From Microbotryum violaceum (taxonomy: Eukaryota), in NCBI GenBank assembly GCA_001244265.2, contig CDLV01000008.1, positions 1,426,001-1,490,000 of the forward strand: a DNA stretch of 64,000 nt, written 5' to 3'. A program made the position numbers and the translations under genes. This document shows, piece after piece, positions 36,256-64,000 of the stretch (positions within the stretch are counted from its first letter, which is position 1; every line of letters starts with the position of its first letter). Below the pieces are notes generated by a model. It made no database searches, was not told where the DNA came from, and saw only the letters and a list, made by a program, of their open reading frames with translations.

Positions 36256-37170
36256 CTAAATAAGGACAAGTCGCCTGCCCCTTAGCACCGCGAGGCAACT
36301 CGAGGCCAACAATTGCAATCCGAGAAGGTCGGCATCGTCCGGAAGAAATCGCGAGTCCACACTGTTGAAGGTGTTAGTAGACCTTGCACTAATATCAGGG
36401 GCCGGATAGCTTAGTTGGTCAAAGCTTTTCCAATGAATGGAAGCGATCCAGGTTCGACTCCTGGTCCAGCCGTTTTTTCTTCTTTTGTTGATCATCTCGG
36501 GATCATCGCTGATTCCAACACACACTACCATTGCAAAATTTCGGAAAAACTGTCTTAACAAGCTGCCTCCTGTGAGTTTTGGGCGAACAGATATTATCAT
36601 GAGCATATTTAAGTTCTGCTCGGAGTCGGAACCACCACTTGATCTACTTGAGACTCTGGTGCGCAGCGGCCAGCGGGGCGCCGCGCGGTGCGGGCCTACA
36701 GATTGCATCAATTGTCTTGCCGGGACATAGCGGCCTGTTCGATGTTACATACCCAACAAATTATGCGGGTCTTCTGTCGGTTGACCTTGATGATGGCCTC
36801 CAGGAAGAATAAAAATGAAACGTACAGGTTCATGACTGTGCGACTCTTGAAGTTCGTACCGACGGTTGCGCCGCGCCGCGCGCGAATATCACGTAGGCCC
36901 ACTGCCGCTATGTCACCCGTATTTATCCTTTCCCGTAGAGATGTGAAGATGGAACAAAGGCAAAACGTTTTTGCGTCGGAGTAAAAAACACGAGGATTGA
37001 AAGTCGTAGGAAGCAGGTTCAGCACCCGGGTTTACAGTGCTCGCGCAACCTTGCCCTTGTGAAAAGCTCACGAGCGAAGTCCGAAAGCAGTCCCACCACA
37101 AGCGCGGCCAACTACGAGTACGCCTGACCCCTAGTCTCAACGTGAAGCACCGTCTCAGGCATACTTACCT
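36256..37170 (-). pseudogene. Highly degenerate retroelement remnant (possible retropepsin/aspartic protease)
   Basis: Combining two frames around 37005-37050 gives RAL/VNPGAE/LNLLP, resembling the ALIDSGA..NL.P retropepsin motif; AT-richer, stop-ridden ORFs. Confidence 0.3.
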
Positions 37171-42999: not shown

Positions 43000-43041
<42 letters not shown>

Positions 43042-43160
43042 TTTTTTTGTTTTTTTTTTTGTTTTTTTTCTTCCCCTCCTTTTTCCTTCCCCTCCTTTTT
43101 CCTTTTTTCCCATTCTTTTTCTTTTCTTTTCTTTTTTTTCCTCTCCTCCCCCCACCCCCC
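42970..43160 (+). repeat. Poly-T / polypyrimidine low-complexity tract
   Basis: ~190 bp of T/C runs, including more than 30 consecutive T. Confidence 0.85.
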
Positions 43161-43737
43161 GACATGGGTACGGGCCCGGAAATCAAGGCTGCACTGTGGC
43201 CGAAGGACAAAGCATGCCATTGTCCAGATCTCATTGCACGAATGTTTGAATGGGCAGGCTGTCTCGACGATAAATGGTTTTTTTTTGCGTTTTTTGTTTG
43301 TTTTTGTTTACCTCGCTGAAATCATGTAGACTGTTCATCGATTCTCATGCGATTTGAATTTCATCCGCTCGTTAATTTAACGGGATCGGATCCCACTGGT
43401 AACGCCACAAAACTCAACTGCCAGTCTGAGAATGGAGCAGTAGTCTGTTTCATAGCTCGACTTTAACAGCGGGTAAAGTAGACCTCTTTGGTCAACTTTG
43501 CGAGTAATAGATTCATGCTACCAGTGACGCACAGACAAAATAAAAATCGCCCAGGCGCTTGGTCAAGAACGGGTGAGAGTGGGGCGATAGTTGGGTCCCG
43601 AGACGAGGGAAAGCAGTAGTGAAAGCAACTAAAAAGAAACGCGCACACGCATGATAGACACGAGACGAATCAGCCCAACCGCTACTTCCGCTACTTCCCT
43701 TCGAGAAGGGCGATGACCGTCAACGGGACAAAAAGTT

Positions 43738-43830
43738 CGATTGCGGCAGGATTCGAACCTGCGCCCTCAAAGAGGATGTGATGATTAGATTATTCGAATC
43801 ACACTCCTTAGACCACTCGGACACACAACC
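43738..43830 (-). tRNA. tRNA-Ser(CGA) with ~10-nt intron (43783-43792)
   Basis: Reverse complement GGTTGTGTGTCCGAGTGGTCTAAGGAG-TGTGA-TTCGAA[TAATCTAATC]A-TCACA-long variable arm-GCAGGTTCGAATCCTGC-CGCAATCG; A/B boxes present; downstream T5 terminator. Confidence 0.9.
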
Positions 43831-43890
43831 TTTAATTGCTGATAAATATGCTCCAAGAAAGCGTATTCAAAGTGCCAGACGCAAAATCAT

Positions 43891-46800
43891 CGCCGGAAGT
43901 CATCTCACTCTCCTTCTCGAAAAACTCAAGTCGCTAGGCACTGAAGTTTTCCCCGAGGGCGCCCTCTTGTCCTTGGATCAGCAGAGCGCGTACGATCGGG
44001 TCGATCACGCATGGATCTTCGACGTCTTCGAGGCCTTTGGCTTTGGTGAGCGTTTCATTTCCCTGCTGCGCGCTCTGTACGATCCCGAGACTCTGGGGGT
44101 GCGCTACCTCATCAATGGGTTCCCCACGGAGTTGGTGCGGTTGCTGTGTGGTCTCGGTCAGGGGATCCCCTCTCGTGCCCGGTTTGGAACATCACGTTCC
44201 AGCCCTTCCTCGACGCCCTCGTTCGGCGCGGGATCGCGCTCGACCTGCAGAAGGTGTGGCCAGGGGGCCGCGTGCGCAGCTTACGCATCTGGCGTTTGCC
44301 GACGATGCTGTGGTGGTAGTGGAGTCACCGGCGGCATTGTCGAAGCTGGAAACGCTGTCGCAGACGTGGTACGAGGCAACCAACGGGAAGACCAACACGG
44401 ACAAGACGCTGGTGCTACCACTCGGACCGAACTGGCTTCGGGACGAGACTGCGCAGGCGCTGCCAACGGTGCAGGAGGGGGAGAGCTTCAAGTGGTGCGG
44501 CTATGCCTTCTTTCGCCACGGTGACTCGAAACTGTTTTGGACCCATGTTCTTGACAGGATCAAGGCCAAGACCCGCGCCGCTGGAGACCGGACACTTTCG
44601 CCGAGTGGGAAGGTCTTCTATGCCAACGCTCACATCATCTCGACGGTCCTCCACGTGCTGTCCTTCGACATACCGCCTCAATGGTTCATTAAGGCGGCGG
44701 AGACAGCACTTACGGATTTTGTTTGGGGAGGAGCAGCGCGAAATACCGTCGCTCGCGATTTCGTGTTCCAGGCTCGGGAGGACGGTGGCTTGGGCTTGAT
44801 TTCAATCGGCGACATCGTTCATTCGGTGGCGCTTCGATTTTGGGATGCTGTGGCGGGCTCGAACGAGGCGATCTGGGCGCCCCTAGCTCGCGAGAGCTGG
44901 AGGTCCCTCGTCGCTGCGACCCGCGATTTCAGTCCGTGGGGGTTCTTCAGCAGCACGGCTCGGGTCGAGAAGCTGTATCGCGACTCGACGCGCTGGGGGC
45001 AGTCGTTGCAGCTGCCAGGGTCACAGTTCCAACCATCAAGCCCGAACTCCTTACGCTCCCCGAATTGCTCTCGCTTCCGCCTCGCCTCCCTTCACTCTAT
45101 GCTGAAGGTGCCAAGCACGCATATGACGATGCGGACGCAGTGGCGAAGTTTGCGCAGATCGCGGACCTGTACTGGAGGGACGAAGGGAAGGGCTGGGCTC
45201 TGGTTGGTCATCGACGCGGGTTCTGGCAGCACTCTAAGGAACCCGCCCTACAGCACGAGCACGTGTGGTCGCGCGTGGGTCAGTTGCTCAAGGCGAAAGC
45301 CTTGCTGCCCAAGACCGCGTTGCGACCTGCTCGGATACCTCTCAAGGAGGCTCCCCGTCCTCGGTGCTTCAACTTCTTTGGGCTCACCCGACCGTTCACT
45401 ATTCGCAAGCTTCGTCGGCTTGTGAACGTGGTTCGGTTCCCAGGGAGGGAGGATCGTGTCAAGCGTTTCCGTGATGGGACTTCTCAGAGCGATAGGAAGC
45501 GCTTCTGGAGATGGCTTCATGACCGGTTTGCGTCTGCTGTGGAGCAGGACACCCACTGGCGGCTCATGTACGACGTGACGCCGACGCGCAAGAGGCAGCA
45601 TACTCAGGGTCATGCCTCTTCGCCGACGTGTCTGTTCTGCGGCAACGATGCAGCGGTCATCGAGACGGTGTCGCACTACTTCTTCGAGTGCGCGTACTCG
45701 ACCAGCTTCTGGGGTGGGGTGCTTCGCATTCTGTTCGACAAGCTGGGCATCGAGGATACCGACGTCGATCCGTCGACGTTCACTCCGGAGCAGCTGACTA
45801 TGGGGCTCCCCCTTTTGCGGGGTCGTGGGAGAACGACCTCGAAATGGATGTGGGTTCGGCTGGCTTGCGCGATCGGCTTCCAGCGGCTGCACCTGCTCCG
45901 CTGGCGCGTTCATCAGCGGTTCGAGCTGGACAAGGTCGTGGCCCCTCCCTCGCTCCCCAGTGCACTCAGAGCGTTCGAGCGAGATTTTCTCTCTCGAGCG
46001 GGTTTTGTGCCTGGGGCTCGAGATTGGGAGGTGTGATGACCGAGTTAAGTCCTTCCTTCCCATTTTCCTCCCCTCCTTTCCTCCCTTCTTTTTCGGAGGT
46101 CGACTCCTCTTTTGTGAGCTGACTGTCTTGGAACTTGTTGCGCAGTGGAAGGCTGCGCACCTCTCCCTCTCTCTCTCTACTTTGCGCAGTAGCGGTTTTT
46201 TGTTCTTGGATGGATCGGCAAGCCAGGTCGATTGTCTTTGCGTTGTAGGCTTTGTGAAGTTTTTCCCTCTCCTTTCCCCCTTTTTCCCTTCCCTTCCTCT
46301 TCTCGTTCCTGTTGCTCGGTTGTTGACTACGCTTCAGCCACTTCTCCTTTTACTCCTAAGCCGTGTGTTGGATTCCGTTGAATGGTTCGTTCGTTCGCGT
46401 TGGTCAAGATCTACGGCATGGCTCGGGAAGGAAGGTCGCTCGTTTCTGGTCAATATCCTCGCGTCAAGGCGAGGCTCGTTTCGTTGTACTGGATCGCTTT
46501 TCTCTCGGCCCCGACGGCTCAACAGCCAGCACTCGAGATTCAGCCAAGGGAGGACATCAGGCGCTGTCGGGGTGACGAGTAGCTGGGGCTTGGCTGCGGC
46601 CTGTTAGTCCCTGGGGACCTCTACCTCCGGCTTCGACCCCCTACCTTGGCCCCTCGGGTGTGTTCCCCTCCTCTCTGTCTTAGTATTCCTGGTTCTCCGT
46701 ATCCCCAGTCGTGACTTTCTGTATACTCTCCCCCTTCTTTCTCTAGGCGCTCTTGCCTGGTTTTCGAGTATCTTTGCTCCCGCTCTTGGGATGTGAAGCG

Positions 46801-47001
46801 GCAGCAGTACTCACCGCCCGTTGGAGTCCGCGTTAGGTGCTCGACGAGTTTTGATCTGCGCAGCGCTCTTTGCGCGCAGGGGTTTGACTTTCACCCAACT
46901 GCTTGCCGTCGTTGCTTTATAACCTCCTTTAGCTCTTTTTGTAGCGGTCCCAGCCAACCCGAAGGATTGCAATTTATGAGCCCCAGTCAAAAAAAAAAAA
47001 A
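43891..47001 (+). mobile_element. LINE family A copy A1 (L1/Tx1-type), 5'-truncated, with poly(A)
   Basis: Starts inside RT (LSLDQQSAYDRVDH, GLGQG, LAFADD); C-terminal zinc finger CLFC...ETVSHYFFEC; ~950-bp 3' UTR; A13 tail at 46989-47001. Confidence 0.92.
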
Positions 47002-48010
47002 GGTGGACGACACCGACCACTACTTTTTCGACTGCGTTGACTCTGGGAACGTTTGGATCGCGGCAAGGAGCGTGCTCTGCGACGCACTGGGGCTCGACAC
47101 GATCGACAACACGCATTACACGGCTGTTCAACGCATGTTCGGACTTCCGAAGCTCAAGGCCAGTCTACGCGATCAAGAAGGAGCGGGGAGGACGATCGAA
47201 ATATTCACCGGGCTGGTCTTGGAGATGATCAGCAGCGGGAGGTGGGGATGCAGAAGTGGGGGACGAAGATGGAGGGTGTTGTGAGGAGGAGGATCATCTT
47301 GGAGGAGAGGTTGAAACTGAGGGCGGGAGGAGCTTGGGGGAGGAGAGGGCAGTAGAGGCTGGGTTCGACTTTCCCCCCACCACCACCACACACACACACC
47401 AAATTCTCGTGACATCATTTTCTCCTACTGTACACTAAATAGATCGCTTTCATCTTTCATTTGTTACAGGTTCACCGTTGCGGATCATGGACCATCTCGC
47501 GATTTGGCGTCGACTCGGTGTGGCTCGCGCTCTTCGGCTTCGGGGTTCTGAGTCAAGGGAGGGATCAGCGGACACAGGCAGAAAGTCGGCTTTGAGGGGC
47601 CAGGGACTGCCGATGGGGGAGGTTTTGAGGGACCTTCACCGCGTCTTGTTGTGACTGAGCAGAGACTTGGAGCGTCGAGGGTCGTGGTGGTTGCGCAGTC
47701 GTGCTCTTGTCTTCGTCTCGACCGAGTGGGAAGTGGCTGTGGGGTGGGCCTTCTGTCGTTAGTACATTTCTTTTCTTTCTTTTTTTTCTCTTCATCTCTC
47801 TTTCTCTCTCTCATTAGTCTCCTGGGGGGAGCAACCGCTTGGCTAGGGCATTTGAATCCGAATCTCGGATTGGTGGACTTGGCTCGTTTCTCGCACTTTT
47901 GCGGGCGGTTTGTGTTATCATCGTAGTCTTCCATCTAGTTTTTCCGTAGGCCAAAACAGGGGGAACAGGAACTGGGGGCAATATGATGAACGTTTTCTAC
48001 AAAAAAAAAA
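47002..48010 (+). mobile_element. LINE family B copy B1, 5'-truncated, with poly(A)
   Basis: Begins with an ORF2 C-terminus (DDTDHYFFDCVDSGNVW...) paralogous to family A; distinct 3' UTR ending GATGAACGTTTTCTAC-A10. Confidence 0.8.
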
Positions 48011-48015
48011 TATGC

Positions 48016-48269
48016 CGTTAGTACTTTTCTTTTCTTTCTTTTTCTCTTCATCTCTCTTTCTCTCTCTCATTAGTCTCCGGGGGGGAGCAACCGCTTGGCT
48101 AGGGCATTTGAATCCGAATCTCGGATTGGTGGACTTGGCTCGTTTCTCGCACTTTTGCGGGCGGTTTGTGTTATCATCGTAGTCTTCCATCTAGTTTTTC
48201 CGTAGGCCAAAACAGGGGAACAGGAACTGGGGGCAATATGATGAACGTTTTCTACAAAAAAAAAAAAAA
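48016..48269 (+). mobile_element. LINE family B copy B2, 3'-end fragment with poly(A)
   Basis: Near-identical to 47757-48010, ends TTCTAC-A14; flanked by ATGCC on both sides. Confidence 0.82.
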
Positions 48270-50634
48270 TGCCAACGCTCACATCATCTCGACGGTCCTC
48301 CACGTGCTGTCCTTCGACATACCGCCTCAATGGTTCATTAAGGCGGCGGAGACAGCACTTACGGATTTTGTTTGGGGAGGAGCAGGGCGAAATACCGTCG
48401 CTCGCGATTTCGTGTTCCAGGCTCGGGAGGACGGTGGCTTGGGCTTGATTTCAATCGGCGACATCGTTCATTCGGTGGCGCTTCGATTTTGGGATGCTGT
48501 GGCGGGCTCGAACGAGGCGATCTGGGCGCCCCTAGCTCGCGAGAGCTGGAGGTCCCTCGTCGCTGCGACCCGCGATTTCAGTCCGTGGGGGTTCTTCAGC
48601 AGCACGGCTCGGGTCGAGAAGCTGTATCGCGACTCGACGCGCTGGGGGCAGTCGTTGCAGCTGCCAGGGTCACAGTTCCAACCATCAAGTCCGAACTCCT
48701 TACGCTCCCCGAATTGCTCTCGCTTCCGCCTCGCCTCCCTTCACTCTATGCTGAAGGTGCCAAGCACGCATATGACGATGCGGACGCAGTGGCGAAGTTT
48801 GCGCAGATCGCGGACCTGTACTGGAGGGACGAAGGAAAGGGCTGGGCTCTGGTTGGTCATCGACGCGGGTTCTGGCAGCACTCTAAGGAACCCGCCCTAC
48901 AGCACGAGCACGTGTGGTCGCGCGTGGGTCAGTTGCTCAAGGCGAAAGCCTTGCTGCCCAAGACCGCGTTGCGACCTGCTCGGATACCTCTCAAGGAGGC
49001 TCCCCGTCCTCGGTGCTTCAACTTCTTTGGGCTCACCCGACCTTTTACGATTCGCAAGCTTCGTCGGTTTGTGAACGTGGTTCGGTTCCCAGGGAGGGAG
49101 GATCGTGTCAAGCGTTTCCGTGATGGGTCTTCTCAGAGCGATAGGAAGCGCTTCTGGAGATGGCTTCATGACCGGTTCGCGTCTACTGTGGAGCAGGACA
49201 CCCACTGGCGGCTCATGTACGACGTGACGCCGACGCGCAAGAGGTAGCATACTCAGGGTCATGCCTCTTCGCCGACGTGTCTGTTCTGCGGCAACGATGC
49301 AGCGGTCATCGAGACGGTGTCGCACTACTTCTTCGAGTGCGCGTACTCGACCAGCTTCTGGGGCGGGGTGCTTCGCATTCTGTTCGACAAGCTGGGCATC
49401 GAGGATACCGACGTCGATCCGTCGACGTTCACTCCGGAGCAGCTGACTATGGGGCTCCCCCTTTTGCGGGGTCGTGGGAGAACGACCTCGAAATGGATGT
49501 GGGTTCGGCTGGCTTGCGCGATCGGCTTCCAGCGGCTGCACCTGCTCCGCTGGCGCGTTCATCAGCGGTTCGAGCTGGACAAGGTCGTGGCCCCTCCCTC
49601 GCTCCCCAGTGCACTCAGAGCGTTCGAGCGAGATTTTCTCTCTCGAGCGGGTTTTGTGCCTGGGGCTCGAGATTGGGAGGTGTGGTGACCGAGTTAAGTC
49701 CTTCCTTCCGATTTTCCTCCCCTCCTTTCCTCCCTTCTTTTTCGGAGGTCGACTCCTCTTTTAGAAGCTGACTGTCTTGGAACTTGTTGCGCAGTGGAAG
49801 GCTGCGCACCTCTCCCTCTCTCTCTCTACTTTGCGCAGTAGCGTTTTTTTGTTCTTGGATGGATCGGCAAGCCAGGTCGATTGTGTTTGCGTTGGAGGCT
49901 TTGTGAAGTTTTTCCCTCTCCTTTCCCCCCTTTTTCCCTTCCCTTCCTCTTCTCGTTCCTGTTGCTCGGTTGTTGACTACGCTTCAGCCACTTCTCCTTT
50001 TACTCCTAAGCCGTGTGTTGGATTCCGTTGAATGGTTCGTTCGTTCGCGTTGGTCAAGATCTACGGCATGGCTCGGGAAGGAAGGTCGCTCGTTTCTGGT
50101 CAATATCCTCGCGTCAAGGCGAGGCTCGTTTCGTTGTACTGGATCGCTTTTCTCTCGGCCCCGACGGCTCAACAGCCAGCACTCGAGATTCAGCCAAGGG
50201 AGGACATCAGGCGCTGTCGGGGTGACGAGTAGCTGGGGCTTGGCTGCGGCCTGTTAGTCCCTGGGGACCTCTACCTCCGGCTTCGACCCCCTCCCTTGGC
50301 CCCTCGGTGTTTCCCTCCTCTCTGTCTTAGTATTCCTGGTTCTCCGTATCCCCAGTCGTGACTTTCTGTATACTCTCCCCCTTCTTTCTCTAGGCGTTCT
50401 TGCCTGGTTTTTGAGTATCTTTGCTCCCGCTCTTGGGACGTGAAGCGGCAGCAGTACTCACCGCCCGTTGGAGTCCGCGTTAGGTGCTCGGCGGGTTTTG
50501 ATCTGCGCAGCGCTCTTTGCGCGCAGGGGTTTGACTTTCACCCAACTGCTTGCCGTCGTTGCTTTATAACCTCCTTGAGCTCCTTTTGTAGCGGTCCCAG
50601 CCAACCCGAAGGATTGCAATTTATGAGCCCCAGT

Positions 50635-50669
<35 letters not shown>
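48270..50669 (+). mobile_element. LINE family A copy A2, 5'-truncated, with poly(A)
   Basis: Near-identical to 44621-47001, with a CAG>TAG stop at 49245-49247; A34 tail at 50636-50669. Confidence 0.92.
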
Positions 50670-50672
<3 letters not shown>

Positions 50673-50880
50673 CTCTCTCTCATTCGTCTCCTGGGGGGAG
50701 CAACCGCTTGGCTCGGGCACTTGAATCCCAAGTATCGGATTGGTGGACACCGGCCCGTTTCTCGCATCTTGCGGGCGGTTTGTGTTATCATCATCAACTT
50801 CCATCTAGTTTTTTCCGTAGGCCAAATAGGGGGAACATGAATTGGGGGCAATATGATGAACGTTTTCTACAAAAAACAAA
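50670..50880 (+). mobile_element. LINE family B copy B3, more diverged 3'-end fragment
   Basis: Homologous to the B1/B2 3' end with multiple substitutions; ends TTCTACAAAAAACAAA. Confidence 0.8.
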
Positions 50881-50885
50881 TACCC

Positions 50886-51107
50886 ACAGGCCGCAGCCAA
50901 GCCCCAGCTACTCGTCACCCCGACAGCGCCTGATGTCCTCCCTTTTTTTTTGTTTTACTGGGCTCATAAATTACGATCCTTCGGGTTGGCTAGAATCGCT
51001 ACAAAAAGGGCTAAAAGAGGTAATAAAGCAACAATGACAAGCAGCTGGATGAAAATCAAACCCCTGCGCGCAACGAGTGCTGCGCAGATCAAAACCCGCC
51101 GAGCACC
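50886..51107 (-). mobile_element. LINE family A 3' fragments on the minus strand (3' UTR piece 50886-50942; diverged 3' terminus with poly(A) 50943-51107)
   Basis: Reverse complements of ~46547-46604 and ~46836-46995; T-run at 50943-50955. Confidence 0.8.
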
Positions 51108-51416
51108 GGCTTGTATACATGTAAGGATATATCCTTACACATGATTTAAGGTCAATACACAACCAAATCTGTTCATCTTGATATTGTAACATCAACATAT
51201 AACTATTTCTGAATGGTGTCTGCAAGGACTACATGATAGCATGTGTATTGCAAGACTTGTAGTGATTCAAAATTTATTTGTCCTTACCGCACCTCCCGTA
51301 GGCCCGTATCCTTACCGCACCCTGGTATCCTTACATGTGTCAACACATGTAAGGATACGCCCGCGCGCGCACATGACATGCGTAAGGATACGCTATACGC
51401 TCGCGCGCAAAGAGCA
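51108..51416. repeat. Putative DNA-transposon end, copy 1 (second copy at 56866-57146)
   Basis: ~300-bp direct repeat starting GGCTTGTATACATGTAAG, with multiple GTAAGGATA/TATCCTTAC inverted motifs. Confidence 0.7.
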
Positions 51417-52245
51417 TGTTGTGGGAAATTAGTAAAGGGTCAGCGGTCCAGAGGGACTTGTGGCATTGGGAAGTTGATGCGCGCGTGGCGCGGCGCCGGA
51501 TGGAGGCAGATGGCGGTGTGGCGTATTGATTGGACTCAGAGGTGGCTTGCACGCGGATACTATCTAAGGCTCTGGTCTCGTTCACTCTCTCCTTCTTCTT
51601 TAACACACACTCGATATCTATCTCGCCCATTCGCCTGCTACAAGTTGATTGACCTTGGCGATACTCTATCTCACAATAGGTCATCTATCAACGCCGTGTA
51701 GCTACAGCGAATCTTCATTCATTCATTGGTACTCCAAGTCCAAATCCACAACAGGTTATGAGTTCGACGACTACCACCAATGTATCGAATGAAGGGGACG
51801 TCAAGATCACCAAGCTCGGTAAAGATAACTACGAGCTGTGGTCAATCCGAGTCGACGCGTTCCTCGAAGGTCGTGGCTACAGCAGTGTACTTCAACACGG
51901 AGCCAACCGACCATCGAGTATGGATGTGCAAGCATGGAAGACTCTCCATGGCATCGACTCAAGTTTAGAGCAGGGCAAGGTCCCGACTCTAATCACCAAG
52001 TGGGATCGTAGTGCGCGCGCGATCATCATCTCGTGCCTCGACGATTCGAATCTCAAGATGGTCAAGAGCAAGTCGCTCTCAGCCAAAAACATCTGGGAGA
52101 AGTTGAAACAACACCACGAAGGGAACTCCGATCCGTTCAAGATTCGCACGCTACTCTACGAGATTTCGAATGCGTCGTACGATGAGGACACCAACCTCGG
52201 CGAGTTTCTCCAGGGCATCACGGACAAGGTCGATCAACTCGAAGA
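51417..52245 (+). mobile_element. Ty1/Copia 5' fragment: LTR 51417-51753, PBS, truncated gag
   Basis: TGTTG...CAACA LTR followed by a GGTTATGAG PBS and the gag N-terminus [22 protein letters not shown]...[13 protein letters not shown]. Confidence 0.88.
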
Positions 52246-52524
<279 letters not shown>

Positions 52525-54764
52525 ACGCGGCCCCCTGGCCACACCTTCTGCAGGTCGAGCGCGATCCCGCGCCAAACGAGGGCGTCGAGGAAGGGCTGGA
52601 ACGTGATGTTCCAAACCGGGCACGAGAGGGGATCCCCCTGACCGAGACCACACAGAAATCGCACCAACTCCGTGGGGAACCCATTGATGAGGTAGCGCAC
52701 CCCCAGAGTCTCGGGATCGTACATGGCGCGCAGCAGGGAAATGAAACGCTCACCAAAGCCAAAGGCCTCGAAGACGTCGAAGATCCATGCGTGATCGACC
52801 CGATCGTACGCACTCTGCTGATCCAAGGACAAGAGGGCGCCCTCTGGGAAAACATCAGTACCGAGTGATCGGAGTTTTTCGAGAAGGAGAGTGAGATGAC
52901 ATCCCGCGTCCGCTGAACGTCTTGATGGCATGAACCCGTGTTGCGCCGGCGGCAAAAGCTCGCCGAGCACCCCATTGAGTCGCGCCACCAAGACCTTGCT
53001 GAGGACCTTGTAGATCGTCTCGCGCAGTTTGATCGGTCGATATGCCCCCAGTGATTTCAGATTGGCCCCCGGTTTATTCTTGGGCAAGAGCCGCACCAGC
53101 CCCTCTGCCAAGGACGCCGTCATTTTACCCCCCTCCCAAATCGAGTTGAACAAATCCAACAGCTTGGGAGCAAAGTAGGTTGGCAGCGCCTTGAAGAGCT
53201 CGTACGGAATGCCCGAGGGCCCCGGTGATCGCCCCGAATCCGTCTTCTTCAACGCCGCTTCGACCTCGGAAAGGTTGAAGGGCTCGTCAAGCGCCACGCT
53301 GGCTTGAAGGGGCAGCCGACGACCGAACGTAGGGTCCGAGCGGTCGTCATCGTAGCATTTCGCTGCGCGAATAGGGTCGAGCAGGGACCGACGTGCGTTC
53401 GTCGGGTCGCCACGAGCTGGGTCCGGCGTGAAGAGCGACTGTGCGTGCCGTGAAGCAATACCCAGCGCCTCCTGCATGTCAACGACCTCGGTGCCATCCA
53501 CATCCTCCAGCGAGACGATGCTCGTCTGGCGACTCCGGCGGTTGAGACGCGTGCGAATGCTTGCCGATTGACCTTCCCTCGAGTCGACTGACGGCACATG
53601 CGCACGAATGCGCAGCCACTGAGCCTCCTTTACCGCCAACTGATCCAACTGCGACTTGGCGAGAGCATACGCATCGCGCTCGGCCTCATTCATATGCTCA
53701 CCGCGTGCCTCCAACGCCTCCATGACGGATTGGTTCTCGGCCCGCAGTCGGCGCATGTCGGCACGAGTCGAGCGGTATCGTGCGTGGCCAGCGGCTGCGA
53801 CCGCCCGCAAAGCGGCGTCATAGACGTCACCGAGTGGAGCGGTCGCCTCGAGTCTCCGATAGACCTCGTCGACAACCCCGGGAATCGAATCGACAAAGCC
53901 TTGATCGTTGAAGACCGTTGGGTTTAGCCTGGAAATGAATTCACTCGTGGTGGGAAGAGCAGGGGGTGGTTCGGCATCAGCAGCGTTCGATGTAGGCAAT
54001 GCGAAAGTCGCAACTACGGGTCTGTGGTCCGAGCAGGGCGCATCGAAGAGTGTGGAAGCGCTCAACAACCGGTTTGCCCAACTGCGCTGGACAAGGATAT
54101 AATCGATCCGCGACCACGAGCAGATTTCTCGTTTGTCCCGCCTACCAAGGTAGTGAGGGCGAGTGAATGCCGGGGTGATGGGATGGAGTTGTCGGATCGT
54201 GTCGAGTGGGTTGAATGCGATCTTTGACAGCAAGGTCTGCCAGTGCGATACAGGAGTCCAAGCGCGATCGGTGATGGCCACTCGGTCGACCGATACATCC
54301 GGACAATCATTGAGATCGCCGGCCAAGATCCGAAGAGTCTTGGGCCCCGGAGCGGTGAAGTGCAGGAGCCCGTAGAAGTCGCGACGCTCTTCCCCCTTGA
54401 CCGGCGCATACATGTTGATGATCTCGATATCGAGCTCCTCAAGACGAAACACCGAGCGCAGGATCCGACCGTCGAATTGAGGGGATTCTGCAAACACGAC
54501 CGGGGTAGAGGAGAGGAGACGGCCCGCCAGAGGTGAGCCATCGGGTATAAGGGTAAGGACATGAGGTGCGAAACGAAGACAAGCTCCTGGCCAAGCACTC
54601 TCGAAGCCTTCGCGCGACGCGTTGTAGCTGAGGTGGTGCTCTTGCAGGAGAATGGCCGCAGGGGCCGGCCGAAGGGTTTTTAGATAGCGGATGATTTTGA
54701 CTTGGTTGACTGCGTTCTTGATCGATCGGACGTTGAACGTCAACACGGTGAGGGACTCAATCAT
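52525..54764 (-). CDS. LINE ORF2 (APE endonuclease + N-terminal RT), truncated
   Basis: TFNVRS, LLQEHH, NMYAP, AGDLND, SRIDYI, SDHRPV (APE); SPGPSG, YRPIKL, QHGF, LSLDQQSAYDRVDH, GLGQGDPLS (RT). Confidence 0.92.
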
Positions 54765-54776
54765 GAATAAATTGGA

Positions 54777-56455
54777 TCAGCGCCGCCCCCCTTCGAATTC
54801 CGGCACCTCGGACCTGTAACCCCCGGAACTGTTGCCCCCTGAGTCGTCACCCCCTGATGCACCGAGGATCATGGCGGATCCCGCCCGGGTGACACGTCGG
54901 TTGCCGGGTGCCGAGCTCGAACGAAGGCGTCGAGGACTCGTCGAGGCTATCGAGGTCGTCGAGGTTGCCGATGATTCCGACGTGCCACCGGACAAAGGCG
55001 ATGCCGGAGCAGAAGTAGAAGGCGAAGGAGAGGTCGGGGTCGAAACGGGCGCCGCTGTCGTCGTCTGCGTCTCCTTTGTTGGGCCCGTGGTCGCACGGGT
55101 CAACGTCTCTTTCCCAGTGTCGCCGCCCTCCGGTTCGGTCGAAGCGACCGATTCGCCGTCGTCGTCGTCGTCGTCACTGTCGCCGTCGTTCGCATCGTCC
55201 TTGTTGCCGGTCGCTGCACCTGCGGGGTTAGCACGAGGTCCCAGCTGGATCATGTTCGTGCCAGAGGCACGAGAGTTCAATGCGGCGGGCCCACCGTGCT
55301 TCCCATTCTTTCCAGCAACTCGGAAGCCGGTGGTCGAAGTCGAAGTCGAAGTCGAGGCCCCCGGAACAGGGGCGGCGGTGGCCGGAGTCGAAACCGGCTT
55401 CCTGCAAGCCCCCCACTGGTGTCCAGCGCGATCGCACACGGCGCAGTAGTGCGTCTCAAATTCGTGTCGCAAGCCGTACTTGGCGCCCAGGATCTCGATC
55501 TCTTGTGGCAAGGCGGCGTTGAGCGCAGCCTTCTGCGTCTCGGTGGAGCCTTGGAAAAGATCAGCATGTAAGCGAAGGTACGCGCAGTGGAACCCGTCTT
55601 CGGTCATGGCCATCGGGTCACCGTTCGGATCGACCGCGAGGCCCCGCTGTAATTGCATGAGGGTATACCCTTGCGTGCAACCAGCGTGGCCGAAGGAGGA
55701 AGTGAGAGCAGCGTCGAGAGATTTTCGGAGCACGGAAGCGGGAATCGCGCTGGAAGAGGAGGGTAAGGTGAATCGCACCTGGACGATGTGGTTTAGGGGG
55801 GAAACACTCGGGAGCTCGGTGACCATCTCTTTTCCGTGATAGGGGAATGGACCCGCTGCAGCGGCTTCGAGACAGGCCTGGTCGGATTCGAACACGAGCT
55901 CGTACATATGACGAGCAATCGGGAACCTCTTCGTTGCCTTCGTCACGATCAGGTTCAGCTTCACACATTTCGAGAAGAGCTTCTCGACCTCGGGGGCAAG
56001 CTCGGCGCCCTCGGGCCGCGCGAACATGAATGGCGTCTCGGCCAGCCCAAAGTGCTTACGCAGCGCAATCTGTACAGGGCCTTTTGGGGACCCAGTACCA
56101 TCCATGATGACTCGGATCACGTTGGAGGCCGGCATCGCGTCGTTTCGTACCGCCCTTTGAGCAGCTCGTGCGAGAGCCGGCGCCTGCGAAGGCGGGCTGG
56201 AGGGTCATACAACAGTACCATCAGCCGGCGGGTCGACTTGGAGGATGGTACGATGCCAAGGGCTTTGAAAGCCTTCTGCATCGACTTCTCATGGTCCAAT
56301 CGAGCCCGAGAAACCTGGGCAGACCAGGCTGGAGGATTAACGGTTCCTCCAGTGACCGTCTCACGGGTTTCCGTGTTGAGTGATTCATCTCTCAACACGT
56401 CACCAGCCCACGGAGCGTTGGGCGGGTGCGGGGGTGGGCCGGGCGGATCCGGCAT
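54777..56455 (-). CDS. LINE ORF1 (gag-like, CCHC knuckle), one frameshift near 56200
   Basis: CAVCDRAGHQWGAC knuckle; the MPDPPG N-terminus at 56455 joins the 452-aa frame via a 1-nt shift; ends 12 bp before the ORF2 ATG. Confidence 0.8.
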
Positions 56456-56546
56456 CACTTCTTGTAGGCGTCCTGTAGCTCTTGAAGCGGTTGGTGGGCG
56501 ACTGTACACACTACACGACGGTACACACTTTGTGTGTGTGTGAAGA

Positions 56547-56563
56547 TTTTTTTTTTTGTAGAA
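56547..56563 (-). mobile_element. Possible extremely truncated LINE family B tail (TTCTAC-A11)
   Basis: The reverse complement TTCTACAAAAAAAAAAA equals the 3' terminus of B1-B3, but only 6 non-A bases match. Confidence 0.5.
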
Positions 56564-56620
56564 GAAATCACGTGACGCGTTAATAAGAATATATAAAGCA
56601 CCAAAGGCACTTCTTCTAAA

Positions 56621-56691
56621 TCCTCGATGGTCTATTGGTATGATTCGGCTCTCTCACAGCCGCGAACGGGGTTCGATTCCCCGTCGGGGAA
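56621..56691 (+). tRNA. tRNA-Glu(CTC)
   Basis: TCCTCGA acceptor stem pairs with TCGGGGA; anticodon arm CGGCT-CTCTCAC-AGCCG; T arm CGGGG-TTCGATT-CCCCG; T5 terminator at 56695; upstream TATATAAA near 56590. Confidence 0.92.
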
Positions 56692-56865
56692 AACTTTTTA
56701 GTTCTGATTTGCCAGTGCTGCCTGCCCTGTACGTGCTTCGGAATCTACCTTCCTTTTGTTTTTCTCACCTTGAACCTCAACGAATATGACTGACGTCGGT
56801 ACCCGCCGCTCGGCGGGGCTTGCAACGGATGTGCCGCGCGCGAACACTGCAGCCCGATAGTTTGT

Positions 56866-57146
56866 GGCTTGTATACATGTAAGTATATATCCTTACCCAT
56901 GAGTTAAGGTCAACACACAACCAAATCTGTTCATCTTGATATTGTAACATCAACATATAACTATTTCTGAATGGTGTCTGCAAGGACTACATGATAGCAT
57001 GTGTATTGCAAGACTTGTAGTGATTCAAAATTTATTTGTCCTTACCGCACCCTCGTATCCTTACATGTGTCAACATGTGTAAGGATACGCCCGCCCGCGC
57101 ACGTGACATGCGTAAGGATACGCTATACGCTCGGGCGCAAAGAGCA
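56866..57146. repeat. Putative DNA-transposon end, copy 2
   Basis: Direct repeat of 51108-51416, continuing into the unique region carrying the protease-like gene. Confidence 0.7.
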
Positions 57147-57241
57147 CTGGCTGCTGCTGGTGAATAGTTGACTCTTTTCGCACACCAGTGGTTGTCAAAG
57201 TATCGCCATGCCCATTTTTGCACTAAGTTTAGTTATACATA

Positions 57242-59565
57242 CTATTGCTGACCGCTATCATAGCCCCTACTGTACACTACATTAGTGATTGACAAGGCCA
57301 AAACTTCACTGGACCACTGGGGCACAACTTTGTGAGTCAAACTTGCCATCAACATGAATGTTCCCCACTGTGATTTCCTCCAGGAGCACTGCACCGCTGG
57401 AAAACATTGTAAGAGGAGAGCATCGTCAGCTCTATTGATCTGCTTTTTTGGCGTTCCCGACACTCACTATCTCGCATTCATGAAAAAAAGCCGACGCATC
57501 TTCCATCTTCCAGACACCTTGTCCTTCTTCAAGAGTCCCTTTGGGTGGTAGACTTGACACTTTAATGCCAATATCGGGAGGATCGGAGGGCTCATGGTAT
57601 AGACTCCACATTTCGTGCCACTGCCGCGTTAGCATTAGGTTGAAGGCTTGCAAGAAGTTCAATGACTCCTCTTCTAGCTCGTAGAAAAGAACGGAAACTA
57701 ATCCGCCAGCGTTCCTGTCGCCTATCGGCCTAGCGAGAGAGCTTTTGATTGCGTCGAAATGATAGCATGCAGCCTCTTGCCCGTATCCAACCGTCGCGTT
57801 CGTAACGAAATGTGAATTGTTGATGTTGTACACTCCTGACCGAAGGCGCCAGACCATCTCTGGCATTTGGTCCGAAACACCGAAGCGTAGCTCAGCTGGG
57901 GCCAGTGAATGTTCCGGGTAAATATTGTTGATGTTGATCACAATCACACTGGGGAGCGAGGTGATTGAAACGAATTGCACGTAAGAGCCTCCGGGGCAAT
58001 TGCGCTTGTGATGCCGACGGCCTGAGTTCTTTGCCTCTGTGTACAATTTCAACGGTTGCCCAACGATTGAGGCGAGGACGTCCGACAACGTTTCCAGCGA
58101 ATGCGAAGGCAGGTGGAGACTTGAGATGAGAAGGGGCCAGTCAACCACAAACTGTCGTCTTGGGGACACCTCAATCTGAGCGCAGTTGCAGGCAGTGCAA
58201 TACCCGGCTCTTTGAAGATGTAATTCGACGACAGTTCGGTCGGGATCATTCAACGTGACAGCGCTTGGCAGAACCGGATGATCGACGGTGAACGAGTGAA
58301 GTGTCTCGAGCCAGGTCTGCCGAAAAAAGTGATGATTAGCGTCCAGTTTTAATCGTCTTGGGAGGGCGGGGTTCGCTAAGTGATTGACTGACTACTGGGC
58401 TACTATAACTCCCCGCTTAAATGGAGTTGTAAAATGGCTTCCGCGCTCTTTCGACATCCCAACCACAGTGGAGGTCATCCGTTCTCGTAATTGTGTGTAT
58501 GCTTCAATGGCGTTCGCCGCCGGTTTCATATCAAACTTTCGAGCCAATGCTGTGTATTCGCGAATCGCATCCCATAGCTCGAGTGCCAAATATCGAGGGC
58601 GGAGCCTCAACACCATCTCATCGCCAAGTGGAGAAATCACGTAGGCTGTATGGGTGTTAAGGATATCCAGACACTGCAGCCATGGTTCCAATCCGTTGGC
58701 GACCGAGAGCAATGCGATAAGCGTTGAGTCAATCCAGCAAGAATTATCGCTCCACGGGCCTTGGATAATGACGACTGGCTCGTCTTCACCTAATCGGAGC
58801 CAGAAGTCTGCGTGGAGCTGCACAACCGTGCTACCGAGCGATGTCGACGTCGATGTCTTGGGCGGAGCGAATTTTACCCTTGGTGCAGATCTAGAGTCCT
58901 CTGGGAGCTTGTCACTGGTGCGCTCGAGTGACGTCGACGTTGAAGCAGGTTTTGGCGTGGCGATTTCTACCTTTCTTGCAGATTTCGATGGCGCCAACTC
59001 CAACTTGGATGCAACCATGGACAGGGGAATGTCGAATACGGACGTACATGTCCTCTTTGCCTCCGATTGTGATTCAGGTTCCGACAAGAGGAAGGCCAAT
59101 CGTTTTCGAGGTATCCGGTATTTTCGACCACTGGGGGCTTCCAAATTTCGTGCATTGTGCTGCGCAAGAACTGTGAGACGGAGGATAAATCAGAGCAGGA
59201 TTTCCGTCAGCCAGGCCTCAGCGCCTCTGCACTCAGTGAACAGTCTGGGGCGGAGGCGTACATATTTGGGACAACTCCGTTTCTTCATTGAACGCCCTCA
59301 CAGCCATAGGGACAACGGGTACTTGTTGCGATGGGCCGCTGAAATCTGAGTGGGGAGGACTACCTTTCGATTTGGAATTGGACATTTGATGGAGCTTGAT
59401 GGAGCGATCCGTCGGGGGAATGGCCTCGGATGAATTGCAATGAATTGAGGGCGTCAATACAACGTCGTCTGATGATTCGCTCGAACTATGCTCGTCAGAC
59501 GGCGGGTCCGGAATCTTGCGCTTGTGGGGGTAATCAACACGTGTTGAGCCCTTTTTGGAGGCCAT
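57242..59565 (-). CDS. USP/USPL1-like cysteine peptidase, probably transposon-borne, multi-exon (limits approximate)
   Basis: Cys box PWSDNSCWIDSTLIALL, CxxC motif (YCTAC), LP.VIVINI, His box GVYNINNSHFVT and YHFD Asp, in USP order across ORFs 58392-59144 and 57432-58253. Confidence 0.55.
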
Positions 59566-59701: not shown

Positions 59702-62700
59702 TATTGGAGTTTGATCTGTTTAAGTTAGGGAGCGCGCGGGGCTTTTCTTCCCGCGCGGCTGTTTACTCTTGGTAGCTTTCTCATCACTTGCTCCACATTG
59801 TGGTCCTGACTTCTCGGTGTCGTGCACCCTCACCTATCAGAAGGCTATACTTCCGCGCTCTCATTGTTTCTGCGATAGGTTATGAGCTCAACGGGTAGCG
59901 TAGGAGGCCCGGGTCAGAAAAACGAATCCCATTGCACCACCATCGGTATGGACACCGATTCACCGTCCACCGAAACGAGTGATCGTGGATTGCATGTCCC
60001 AATCCTTCGCGCATCCAATTACATGGATTGGCGCCGACGTCTGATTGGTCGTCTGGGCTCCAAGGACTTGCATCTTTGCGCATCGAGGCCGTTGAGCGAC
60101 GCTGCGAAGGCCGTTCTTCAGGTCGCAATCAATGATCAATCGCGCGGCTTCTACTCGCCTCTCGAGCGGCTCGACTTCGCAGCTATGGACGCGAAGATCG
60201 CCAAGGAGCTAATGAAGGAGGTTTGAACTCAAGCTGAAATCATTCAGTTTCTCGATGAGGCCAATCTTCGCTTGGTCAGGGGTTGTTACACGTCTTACAA
60301 CATACTCGACTTGCTGAACACGTTCTACCTCGGAACGATGAGCGCTCAGATTTCCGCCTTGACGACTGAGCTCTATGCGCGCAAGTTCTCGTCTGGCGAT
60401 CGTGGGCAGTTACTGCATCACTTGACCACCATCCAAGGAATTTTGCAAGATCTTGAGGCGTGTGGCTCTGGGATGCCACCAGCTCAACAGTTGACGCTGA
60501 TGCTCGATTCCGTCTTCGACCCGCAACACGAGTCGTTCACAAGCTCACTGCGTCGACCTCTGGCTCTACCTTCGGAGATTGTTTCCGAGGCACGGTCTTA
60601 CCAGTTCAAAGTCTCGCTGGAAAGTCGAATCAATGGACTATCTGCCATGACTTCCGGACGCGCCATGGCTCCGTCGCCTGTTCCTGCGCTCGTTGCGCAA
60701 GGCGAATCACAAAAGGGCGCGCGTCACAAAAGACGTCTCAAGAAAGGCAATCGTGACGGGCAAGGAAATCGCCGTCCTACCGATTCCACCTGTCATGCGT
60801 GTGGAGCGAAGGGACACTGGTCTTGCGATGCAGTGTGCCCGGAAAAACGCTCGAAGTCATCTGCAGCCCCCGCATTGGTTGCAATGAACTCCTATTCCGT
60901 TTACCTTGCTGGTTCTTCCTCGAGAGCTCCCGATGCCGACTTCGTTTGGATCGCGGATACCGGAGCTGGTCACCACTTCGTTGGCGATTGTTTGCTGCTC
61001 TCGGATTTCAAAGAATCCCCAATTCAAGTCCAGATGGCCGACAACTCGCTTGGTCAAGCCACTGGATACGGGCGAATGTCTGTTAAGGCTTCGCAAGGTC
61101 ACCTTCTCAACTTCAAGGAGATGTACTACCTCCCTGGATCGAAGTATGGTCTAATCTCAATGTCGTCGCTCCGCGCTGGAGGCGCGAAATTGGTTTATGG
61201 CCATGGGGGAGATACTCAACAGGTTTGGCTTGACGGCTCTCTCGTCGCCGAAACTGTCAAGACGAAGGCCAAACAACCAAGTTACGTCTTCGATTTTGAG
61301 ATTGTCTCTCCACCCTCGCCTGTGCTTGTCGCAGCTACCCGTGCTTCCGTTGGAGCTTCGCTCATGGAATGGCATTGGAACTTCGGACACATGGCACCCT
61401 CTTCAATTCTTCAACTCGTCAAATCCAAGGCTATTGTTGGAATTCGTTTACTCGACAAGAAGATTGAAGACTGTGAGCCGTGCATTATCGCGAAGGCGCG
61501 CGCGGGCTCTCACAAACATTTCAGTCAAAAACCCGGACATGTTCTTCAACGGGTTTCGATCGATCTGGGATTCGTCAATGATGACGATACCAATGGACGA
61601 TCCATATATACGGTTATCGTGGACCAACTTTCAACCTATAAGTGGGCTTTTCCACTTGGTTCCAAGTCGGCATCAGAAGTCCTCAAGGTCTGGCGTGGCT
61701 TTCAAGCGCAGGTCGAGAGGCAGTCCGGTCAGAAGATCAAGTTTGTTCAATCTGACAATGGAGGCGAGTTCGAGGTCTTCTTTGGCAAGCAACCCGACGT
61801 TTCGCATCTTCGCGCGTTCGGATCTACTGCCTACGTTCTCGTTCCCAAGGCGATTCGTAAGAAGCTCGATGACCATACTGTCAAGGGTACTTTCCTTGGC
61901 CATTCGGGGGAGTACAACTACAAGGTTCGGGTTGAACACCGTCGGTCTTTCAAGATCGTCGTCTCTTCCGATGTCACCTTCTCCGACAAGGCTCCTTCGA
62001 TCGCGGACTCGGCTGTCGAGCCTCGCATCTACGAAGTTGAACCTATACAGGAACACGAGTTAGTACATCAACTGCCGTTTCCTGGCTTGGAGCAGATTTC
62101 GGCTTTACGGCCTGCGCTCGTACCCGAGCTTGGTCCGGCTTTTCGGCCAGCTCCCGCTCCTCTTCTTCGTTTCCAAGATATGGACGATGACGACGTTGCT
62201 CCTCCTCCTTTACCGGCTGTCGGCCCGTTGGCCGAAGACGCCGAAGTTGAAGAGGACCCGATTGATCATCGACGCGAGGAAGCAGTTGAGGCTATCGACA
62301 GTGACGATGACAACGGCCCTGCGGAACACGATCAACCATTACCTCCTGAGGATGGTTACGAGTATCGACCTTACCGTGTCGGCCGCAACCCCGGTGCGCT
62401 CGAGAACGTCGATGCCGGCAATATTTTACCGACTCGCCTGCGTGCTCAGCGTCGTGCAGACGCCCTTCGTGTCGTGTCTACTCGCTCGGTCTACCGTCAT
62501 CCACCAGAGCTCATTGCTATGGTTTCGTCTTGTCACACCCCGCTTCCCAAGACGTTTGCGGAAGCGATAGCCTCTTCTGAGGCCAAACACTGGATGGCCG
62601 CTTCTGAGAAGGAGTTGGGCTCATTCAAGTTGCACAAGGTCTTCAAGCTTACAAGGCTACCCACCGGGGCTCGCGCCCTGGGCTATCGTTGGGTGTTCAC

Positions 62701-64000
62701 TCGGAAGGAAGACGCTGAAGGCAACATCATCAGCTACAAGGCTCGTCTCGTCATCCAAGGCTTTGCTCAACGACTTGGGATTGACTACAACGAGACGTTT
62801 GCTCCTGTCTCGTCGATCACGACAATCTTGTTTCTCATCGCAATGTCTGCCGCTGTCGGACTCGTCCTCGAACAGTTTGACTATGATTCTGCGTTTCTCA
62901 ACGGGATCATGGAGGAGGATATCTGCATGAAGGTTCCTGAGGGATGGACTGGTGGTTCTCGGCCCGGTCACGCTCTCAAGCTCCTGAAATCCATGTATGG
63001 CACCAAGCAAGCTCCTCGGCAATGGAACGCGGCTCTCCACAAGCTGATGACGGATCGCGGCTATACGCGCTCAAATGTCGATGCTTGTCTGTATTTCAAG
63101 TATCATGGCAAGTCGTTTGCGATCATCACATTGTATGTTGATGATGGGCTTGCTGCATCGAACGACCAGGCTTTTCTGGACTCCGAGATTTCGGCTTTCG
63201 ATGCAGTCTACAAGCTCAAGCGACTTGGCCCGGTCAAGACGTTCCGTTTGTTCGAACCAAGGATTTCATCTTCGTCCACCAATCGAAGTACATTCGAGGC
63301 TTACTCGAACACTATACTTTCGAAAACAAGTCGAAGAAGCCGGTCGCGACTCCCATGGAGGATCGCGTCATCTCGTCTTCTACCGCACCGTTCTCCGACA
63401 TCCTTGTATATCAATCGGCGGTGGGAGCTTTACAATACGCTGCGCAACGTGTTCGTCCCGATATCGTGACTTCCGTTTGTGCGGTGGCAAAGTGCGTGGC
63501 TGCTCCAACCGAAGGAGACTGGATCTGCGTCAAGCGAATCTTTCGCTATCTTTCTGACACCGTCGACTATGGGCTACTCTACCGCGTAGGCGGTTCTACC
63601 AAGTTCGAGGTGTACAGTGACGCGTCGTTTGGTTGCGATCACAACAACGGCAGATCTGTGGGAGCGTATGTCGTTATCATGGCTGGCGCTGCTATTTCCT
63701 GGAAGTCGAAACAACAGACGATGGTTGCTTCTTCTACAGCAGAGTCTGAGACTCTGGCTGCTTCAACCGCAGCAAAGGAGGCTATCGGTCTTCGCAACCT
63801 GGCGTCCAAACTTCGCATCAATCAAGGTCAATCTACTGTTCTGCACAAGGACAACCAACCTTGCATCGATTTGGCGAAGAATCCTGGAGCTCGAGGTCGT
63901 ACTTGCCATTGGAATGTACATCATTTCTATTTACGCGAACGAATCGAGGTTGGCGATATCGATCTCCGCTACTGTCCGACCAATCTGAACACGGCCGACA
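59702..64000 (+). mobile_element. Ty1/Copia LTR retrotransposon, degenerate, runs off window end
   Basis: Putative LTR 59702-59877 and PBS GGTTATGAGC. Gag with a stop at 60224-60226; knuckle CHACGAKGHW; protease WIADTGAGHH; integrase SDNGGEF (deleted beyond); RT YKARLV...LYVDD; frameshift ~63240; RNase H VYSDAS. Confidence 0.95.

Follow-up and report, generated by a model that had tools for sequence, protein, structure and literature searches.

Position-specific insertion next to tRNA genes is a classic survival route of retrotransposons in compact genomes, and to our knowledge it is known in fungi for long terminal repeat (LTR) elements only. Among non-LTR retrotransposons, such targeting is documented for dictyostelids only, going by the excerpts of the literature on which this and all following statements on published systems draw (PMC5911963, PMC5006619). 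One of these elements, TRE5-A, inserts 40–54 bp upstream of tRNA genes (PMC5911963), or about 50 bp upstream, in the opposite transcriptional orientation and 5′ end to 5′ end (PMC3159450, PMC5911963). A second element, NLTR-B of Polysphondylium pallidum, inserts 39–64 bp upstream of tRNA genes and is unrelated to the TREs (PMC5911963, PMC5006619), indicating that tRNA-upstream behavior can evolve convergently. A published criterion for tRNA targeting asks that multiple copies be found near different tRNA genes at comparable distances (PMC5006619). Here we describe a comparable arrangement in the fungus Microbotryum violaceum, namely a nest of long interspersed nuclear elements (LINEs) of two families, A and B, which lies between the divergent genes for tRNA-Ser(CGA) and tRNA-Glu(CTC) in a 64,000-nt stretch of contig CDLV01000008.1 (positions 1,426,001–1,490,000; hereinafter the window, to which all coordinates refer). 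We put the probability that this nest reflects position- and orientation-specific LINE integration upstream of tRNA genes at roughly 0.55. Our searches of the main texts of open-access papers turned up no fungal LINE described as lying upstream of tRNA genes.

The two tRNA genes are transcribed away from each other, and the 12,673 bp at 43891–56563 between their upstream flanks consist essentially of transposon sequence, with no unique DNA left: nine LINE pieces of families A and B, one solo LTR, and one Copia fragment. From left to right the locus reads as follows:

43738–43830, minus strand: tRNA-Ser(CGA), found by ARAGORN and Rfam, with a T5 terminator directly downstream
43831–43890: left flank, the 60 nt upstream of tRNA-Ser, with AAATCA at 43884–43889 abutting the nest
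43891–47001, plus strand: A1, family A, 5′-truncated inside the reverse transcriptase; rest of open reading frame 2 (ORF2), zf-RVT, 3′ untranslated region (UTR), A13
47002–48012, plus strand: B1, family-B 3′ part with ORF2 C-terminus, 3′ UTR, A10
48012–48269, plus strand: B2, 257-nt family-B 3′ end, A14
48269–50669, plus strand: A2, family A, 5′-truncated, with a tail of about A35
50670–50882, plus strand: B3, diverged family-B 3′ end, about 89% identical to B1 and B2
50886–50944, minus strand: A5, 59-nt family-A 3′ UTR piece without a tail, 100% identical to A1 and A2
50935–51107, minus strand: A4, 3′ end of a family-A copy, 87.5% identical to A1; its poly(T) reads on the plus strand
51108–51416, plus strand: solo-LTR-like repeat C, copy 1, 88% identical to 56866–57146
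51417–52524, plus strand: Copia fragment, with an LTR-like arm, a gag N-terminus (PF14223), and an inverted LTR-like arm
52525–56546, minus strand: A3, family A with a complete 5′ end, 3′-truncated at 52525 against the Copia arm
56547–56563, minus strand: B tail, 17 nt, T11 + GTAGAA, the reverse complement of the family-B 3′ end (final 6 nt plus poly(A))
56564–56620: right flank, the 57 nt upstream of tRNA-Glu, with AAATCA at 56565–56570
56621–56691, plus strand: tRNA-Glu(CTC), 71 nt, found by ARAGORN and Rfam, followed by a T5 terminator

The distances and orientations within this array are regular. LINE homology starts at 43891 (±2), 60 nt from the 5′ end of tRNA-Ser, while on the other side the B tail ends at 56563, 57 nt from tRNA-Glu, and the full-length 5′ end of family A, in A3, lies at 56546, 74 nt from the same gene. 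All nine LINE pieces have their 5′ end toward the nearer tRNA gene, with the five to the left of ~50885 on the plus strand and the four to its right on the minus strand. Consequently, the nest is bounded on either side by LINE 5′ ends (A1 at 43891; the B tail and A3 at 56563 and 56546), and the two stacks meet tail-to-tail at 50882–50947, where the B3 poly(A) is followed by CCC, A5, and the A4 poly(T). In the other ~51 kb of the window, BLASTN and tblastn searches with 34 proteins recovered no LINE sequence. An initial annotation of the window had proposed these LINE starts, the distances of 60, 57, and 74 bp, and the facing of every 5′ end toward a tRNA; homology searches and the 12-mer TTCTACAAAAAA agree with it on all three counts. 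This 12-mer occurs four times in the window (at the ends of B1, B2, and B3, and at 56552–56563 on the minus strand) as against 0 expected from 100 shuffles, so the short B tail is real.

tRNA-Ser(CGA) comprises 83 nt plus a 10-nt intron and has a long variable arm (ARAGORN in intron mode); default ARAGORN labels the same segment Arg(tcg), and the Ser(CGA) call appears once introns are allowed, which, together with Rfam, upholds the positions and the serine identity given in the initial annotation. The tRNA genes of the window score 43–51 bits against Rfam. Each flank carries a TATA-like sequence, ATATTTAT at about −25 from tRNA-Ser and TATATAAAG at about −30 from tRNA-Glu. No tRNA remnants were found inside the nest at Rfam E ≤1. 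An origin of the tRNAs as parts of short interspersed nuclear element (SINE)-like or Helenus-like transposons was ruled out, as they diverge from the LINEs and have normal scores; moreover, no Helenus is reported in Microbotryum (PMC10886601).

Both junctions of the nest carry AAATCA, which on the left ends the flank and on the right starts one base past the B tail, contrary to the earlier impression that the flanks share no obvious sequence. A Monte-Carlo simulation drew 20,000 random pairs of flanks matched in composition; their junctions agreed over at least 6 nt at a frequency of 0.013 with several offsets permitted and of 0.002 with strict placement. Since about eight junction pairs were inspected by eye, we regard AAATCA as a candidate target-site duplication of the nest that is suggestive rather than proven. 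If it is a duplication, the two tRNA genes would originally have been separated by a spacer of 59 + 50 = 109 bp, with a single entry point 53–59 bp from tRNA-Ser and 50–56 bp from tRNA-Glu. As the nest is all transposon and AAATCA stands at both of its junctions, we take the two anchors to be one site of this ~109-bp spacer. The two tRNA-anchored stacks of the initial annotation thus stand as to position and orientation, and their distance and orientation match those of TRE5-A and NLTR-B; what does not stand, and what qualifies its claim of targeting at a fixed distance from RNA polymerase III (Pol III) genes, is the independence of the two anchors, which trace to one site.

Family A, assembled from A3 and A1, spans about 6.1 kb from 5′ UTR to poly(A). 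Its ORF1 (56135–54777, minus strand) has 452 codons and a single C-x2-C-x4-H-x4-C knuckle, and ends in a TGA stop that is followed 15 nt on, in the same frame and with four sense codons between, by the ORF2 ATG at 54764; this layout (54762–54779, minus strand) suggests stop-codon readthrough or termination-reinitiation. ORF2 (52509–54776, minus strand) has the N-terminal endonuclease domain Exo_endo_phos (E 9.2e-06) followed by RVT_1 (E 1.2e-14), both of them Pfam domains that are also present in the full-length relatives P0001 (family A) and P0080 (family B). The C-terminal zinc-binding, CCHC-type domain of ORF2, zf-RVT (PF13966), was detected in 44693–46036 (E 1e-06) and in P0080 (E 1.9e-06), and in P0001 at E 5.7e-04, below the curated cut-off. 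These three Pfam domains corroborate the apurinic endonuclease–reverse transcriptase (APE-RT) element type assigned in the initial annotation; Pfam detected no RNase H domain in ORF2. The 3′ UTR of family A runs for about 410 nt before the poly(A), and the tails in the nest are A13, A10, A14, and about A35. A complete 5′ end is present in just one of the nine LINE pieces (A3), the other eight being 3′ pieces or fragments.

Among proteins of solved structure, ORF2 comes closest to human LINE-1 ORF2p (E 2e-26), with R2 proteins scoring lower (1.7e-16); this comparison serves here as a proxy for a tree. Most database relatives of the family A ORF2 (28 of 34) are named Microbotryum and are up to 91% identical, the remaining six being 35–44% identical, which places the host of the window in Microbotryum. 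For family B, of which the window holds 3′ parts only, the ORF2 C-terminus yielded 67 protein matches, all but one named Microbotryum. The full-length ORF2 proteins of B (P0080) and A (P0001) share 39% identity over 958 residues. Families A and B are sister APE-RT, poly(A)-tailed LINEs of Microbotryum, probably of the L1 group; L1-clade elements are present in M. violaceum according to the excerpted part of PMC3956500. Relatives of the ORF1 protein are confined to Microbotryum: all 16 matches of a first search came from Microbotryum, and a search among 1.84 billion representatives returned 16 matches, 14 close and two weak, one of the weak ones carrying DUF4283 and zf-CCHC_4.

If tRNA genes direct these insertions, families A and B would enter ~50–60 bp upstream of the mature tRNA 5′ end, just outside the expected TFIIIB/TATA region, in a fixed orientation with the element 5′ end facing the tRNA 5′ end. 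In the ~109-bp spacer of two divergent tRNA genes, one point would fall within the preferred zone of both; plus-strand copies would be directed by tRNA-Ser and minus-strand copies by tRNA-Glu. Each new copy would enter between the tRNA-side flank and the preceding copy, with older copies being pushed outwards from the tRNA, and the process would yield two outward-facing stacks joined tail-to-tail at the center, into which LTR elements would have inserted later. Under this scheme we infer that the site is chosen by position relative to the tRNA gene and not by local sequence. Purely by analogy with TRE5-A, ORF1p or ORF2p might read the TFIIIB/TFIIIC complex.

The alternative that survives best, which we nevertheless consider unlikely, dispenses with tRNA targeting: a seed LINE would have landed by chance, or been tolerated by selection, in the ~109-bp gene-free spacer, and the nest would then have grown by Zorro3-like nesting in poly(A) tails, with an L1-type endonuclease nicking T-runs, so that newcomers would share the orientation of the copies whose tails they enter. 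The two accounts differ in what they predict for the edges and the center of the nest. Nesting in a first insertion would leave a 5′ end at one edge and a poly(A) at the other, so that the edges found here, both of them 5′ ends, stay unexplained by it; together with the tail-to-tail center they favor tRNA-upstream targeting, such a topology being hard to reach unless insertions strike repeatedly at one fixed point beside each tRNA. That central junction cannot be produced by T-run-primed reverse transcription, in either order of events, and nesting would need a second seed in the opposite orientation exactly at the boundary between flank and element. Twin priming was ruled out as a source of the mirror-image layout, as it would put heads at the center, where there are tails. 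The inner junctions of the nest are older LINE tails; at the outer ones there is AAATCA and no A-tract. If AAATCA is a duplication, the putative first nick, that is, the priming site of the first minus-strand insertion, would be AAATCA/CGTG, which lacks a T-run and argues against a sequence-driven choice. Likewise, a T36 + T11 tract at 43005–43060, some 700 bp past the 3′ end of tRNA-Ser and the only A/T homopolymer tract of at least 10 nt in the window other than the LINE tails, is free of LINEs.

The expectations for chance placement are also low. That a seed should by chance hit an inter-tRNA spacer of ~110 bp in a genome of 26 Mb has a very low prior probability, and random placement would put about 0.03 head-to-head LINE 5′ ends, summed over the genome, into a 30-bp zone upstream of tRNA genes. 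The latter figure is our own arithmetic from the numbers for M. lychnidis-dioicae (392 LINE copies, 134 tRNAs, 26.1 Mb; excerpted from PMC4469406). The same placement is, moreover, shared by two families, A and B, that are only 39% identical in ORF2. The most diverged copies are central: B3 has 33 private differences against three in B1 and two in B2, and A4 is the copy with 87.5% identity to A1.

Several observations weigh against tRNA-directed integration, and some of them speak for poly(A)-tail nesting at the same time. The distances of 57 and 60 nt are non-independent, the effective sample being about one seed site plus the re-use of its edges. The evidence comes from one locus, selected post hoc out of a very large scan, so the 0.03 figure overstates the significance. 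Every stack-internal junction consists of poly(A) followed within 0–3 nt by the next 5′ end, which fits insertion into poly(A) tails equally well; for instance, A3 stands directly after the A11 of the B tail. The ATGCC on both sides of B2 (48012–48016 and 48269–73, the second copy being the first bases of A2) is readable as a duplication that spans the B1 tail and the A2 junction, and the repeated duplications expected after the poly(A) tails inside the stacks were not found there. There is no age gradient between A1, beside the tRNA, and A2, which have two and four derived sites, respectively; these sites were polarized with protein outgroups after dropping 18 alignment-edge and four tail mismatches, gap columns, and sites with no or tied votes. 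That Zorro3 targets poly(A) is recorded in the excerpted text of PMC7175516. A5, between the tails of both stacks, is explained by neither way of building them.

Comparison with public data adds to this side of the balance. Four of 21 runs (X1, X16, X9, and X11), all with short contigs, were compared with 43600–56800. LINE-to-LINE junctions similar to those of the nest occur at five other places in the X1, X16, and X9 contigs (three organisms), which carry no tRNA information; these were counted among the 12 of 18 and 15 of 29 joints listed. They include, in X1, an A tail followed by ACGG and A at 46591; in X16, one B tail followed by AA and A at 45401 and another followed by ATTG and A at 46950; and, in both X16 and X9, a minus-strand A tail followed by CGG and A at 55906. 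LINE-to-LINE stacking is hence general and not limited to the tRNA-flanked nest. Among the 15 of 29 joints listed, none was an empty-site joint of 43890 to 56564. Profile scans with ORF2 recovered just two short loci (1.6 and 1.1 kb) without usable tRNA context from metagenome contigs, nothing from viral contigs, and two bacterial endonuclease-like matches only from contigs of prokaryote genomes.

Finally on this side, one of the three tRNA-like genes of the window has no LINE:

36400–36472, plus strand: third tRNA-like gene, 48.8 bits in Rfam, Ser(TGA) by ARAGORN, with a T-run terminator

No LINE or other transposon was found upstream of this gene by BLASTN or tblastn. It is atypical, with 73 nt, no long variable arm of the kind seen in serine tRNAs, and an A instead of U preceding the anticodon TGA; the isotype assignment is therefore doubtful, and a pseudogene is possible.

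Less probable still is a soft enrichment driven by accessibility, in which LINEs with a weak A/T preference would find nucleosome-free, AT-rich DNA outside the TFIIIB footprint to be one of few accessible and harmless targets in a compact genome of 55–60% GC, such that several transposon classes gather there without any Pol III recognition. The flanks are indeed AT-rich (GC 0.45 in 43001–44000 vs 0.55–0.61 around), the bottom strand at the site of plus-strand entry has the L1-like nick sequence TGATTTT/GC, and LTR elements are close by (a solo LTR 174 nt past tRNA-Glu, one in the nest, and Copia sequence at 60227–63999). Such enrichment predicts neither the strict head-to-head orientation of nine out of nine pieces nor the re-use of the exact same junction by both orientations. 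A collapse or mis-join of the long-read assembly, or a mirror image created by inversion or by ectopic recombination among the LINEs, is highly improbable. In its favor, no contig among the listed pieces of the four public runs spans the locus, homopolymer-G lengths differ between the window and contigs (at 44160, 44262, 44994, 47243, and 48643) in a way that resembles long-read errors, and the 3′-truncated A3 and palindromic Copia fragment attest that rearrangements did occur. Against it, flank and LINE meet in a simple, unique junction on each side, an inversion would find no inverted repeats to work on in a stack of plus-strand copies only, and the AAATCA pair cleanly brackets the whole nest.

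The remaining anatomy of the nest and its surroundings can be summarized as follows. A2 is 98.6% identical to A1 across 2383 nt, and A3 and A4 are probably the 5′ part and the 3′ end of one element. Three bases, CCC, separate B3 from A5. The ORF2 of A1 is broken by several frameshifts; at the five homopolymers given above, several runs have contigs that are longer by one G, so the ORF2 frameshifts of A1 and A2 may be assembly errors. The Copia remnant is palindromic, its arm of ~290 bp being inverted on the far side of the gag N-terminus. In contigs of other genomes, position 51417 is joined to other sequences, including family A at 46999 and 49522, and it is a true element terminus. In each of the four public runs, contig depth over the stretch peaks in the bin 51979–52419, indicating that the family of the Copia remnant is abundant. 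To the left of the locus, the T36 and T11 runs are followed by a long CT-rich tract that extends to 43140. Repeat C has a second copy beyond tRNA-Glu:

56866–57146, plus strand: solo-LTR-like repeat C, copy 2, 174 nt downstream of tRNA-Glu

The two copies of ~280–310 bp are 88% identical and both start with TGTATACATG; taken as 56870–57147, copy 2 has TGGCT on both sides, as expected of a solo LTR. A Copia-type element at 59724–63999 runs off the right end of the window, making the tRNA-Glu side transposon-rich beyond the nest; in tblastn, its ORF of 1080 codons (60227–63469) is matched by P0034 and P0019 in their Copia portions. Between the two lie a pair of adjoining open frames (57432–59189, minus strand; 319 and 265 codons) with a single stop between them, which have no Pfam match at E 0.01 and may belong either to a host gene or to some unknown repeat.

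Were tRNA-upstream integration of families A and B to hold, TRE5-like behavior would have arisen independently in a fungal L1-group LINE, a convergence across supergroups. It would offer a second, genetically tractable system for studying how target-primed reverse transcription gauges distance from TFIIIB/TFIIIC, and would explain where Microbotryum LINEs accumulate, with tRNA loci as hotspots of structural variation. The wider proposition has in our estimate about even odds: A and B would be the first fungal non-LTR elements to read the position of a Pol III complex, ~50–60 bp upstream and head-to-head, representing a third independent origin, in a different supergroup, and possibly acting via their lineage-restricted ORF1 protein.

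Set against described systems, A and B resemble D. discoideum TRE5-A (and TRE5-B/C) in having two ORFs, an APE-RT-zinc-finger ORF2, an oligo(A)/poly(A) tail, and a head-to-head placement, in a fungal rather than an amoebozoan host. Their distance of 57–60 nt (50–59 if AAATCA is a duplication) is slightly larger than the 40–54 of TRE5-A. The ORF1 and ORF2 of family A share a frame past a TGA, whereas TRE5-A needs a −1 frameshift (PMC5911963), and the family A ORF1, unlike that of TRE5-A, has a CCHC knuckle and close relatives in Microbotryum only. Genome-wide tRNA association and TFIIIB binding are features of TRE5-A, while A and B are known here from the sequence of one locus. NLTR-B has an RNase H domain instead of a zinc finger and three ORFs, in contrast to the APE, RT, and zf-RVT, without RNase H, of A and B. 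With 60 nt (Ser) and 57 nt (Glu), the new elements fit the integration zone of 40–64 bp upstream. As for the occurrence of copies at several tRNA genes, there are two here, at 57 and 60 nt, both from one ancestral site.

Among fungal elements, Zorro3 of Candida albicans is likewise an L1-clade LINE with a zinc-knuckle ORF1 and a poly(A) tail (PMC7175516, PMC3956500); it inserts at poly(A) tracts without, in those excerpts, chromosomal or tRNA preference, whereas the seed site of A and B has no A-tract and the T36 is empty. Cnl1, a CRE-type fungal LINE, prefers telomeres (PMC7175516). NeSL-1_TV, LIN15_SM, and LIN25_SM are, like A and B, non-LTR elements associated with tRNA genes (PMC4640811), but they use a restriction-like endonuclease and insert into the gene itself, with sequence specificity for a single tRNA species, while A and B are of the APE type and lie upstream of two different tRNAs (Ser and Glu), leaving both genes intact. 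Ty3 and Ty1 are also fungal retroelements with Pol III genes as safe havens (PMC5911963, PMC7175516); they differ in being integrase-based LTR elements, with Ty3 inserting at the transcription start site and Ty1 in a window reaching to ~1 kb. The closest systems to families A and B are thus the dictyostelid TRE5-A and NLTR-B by behavior, and probably the L1-group fungal LINEs by descent.

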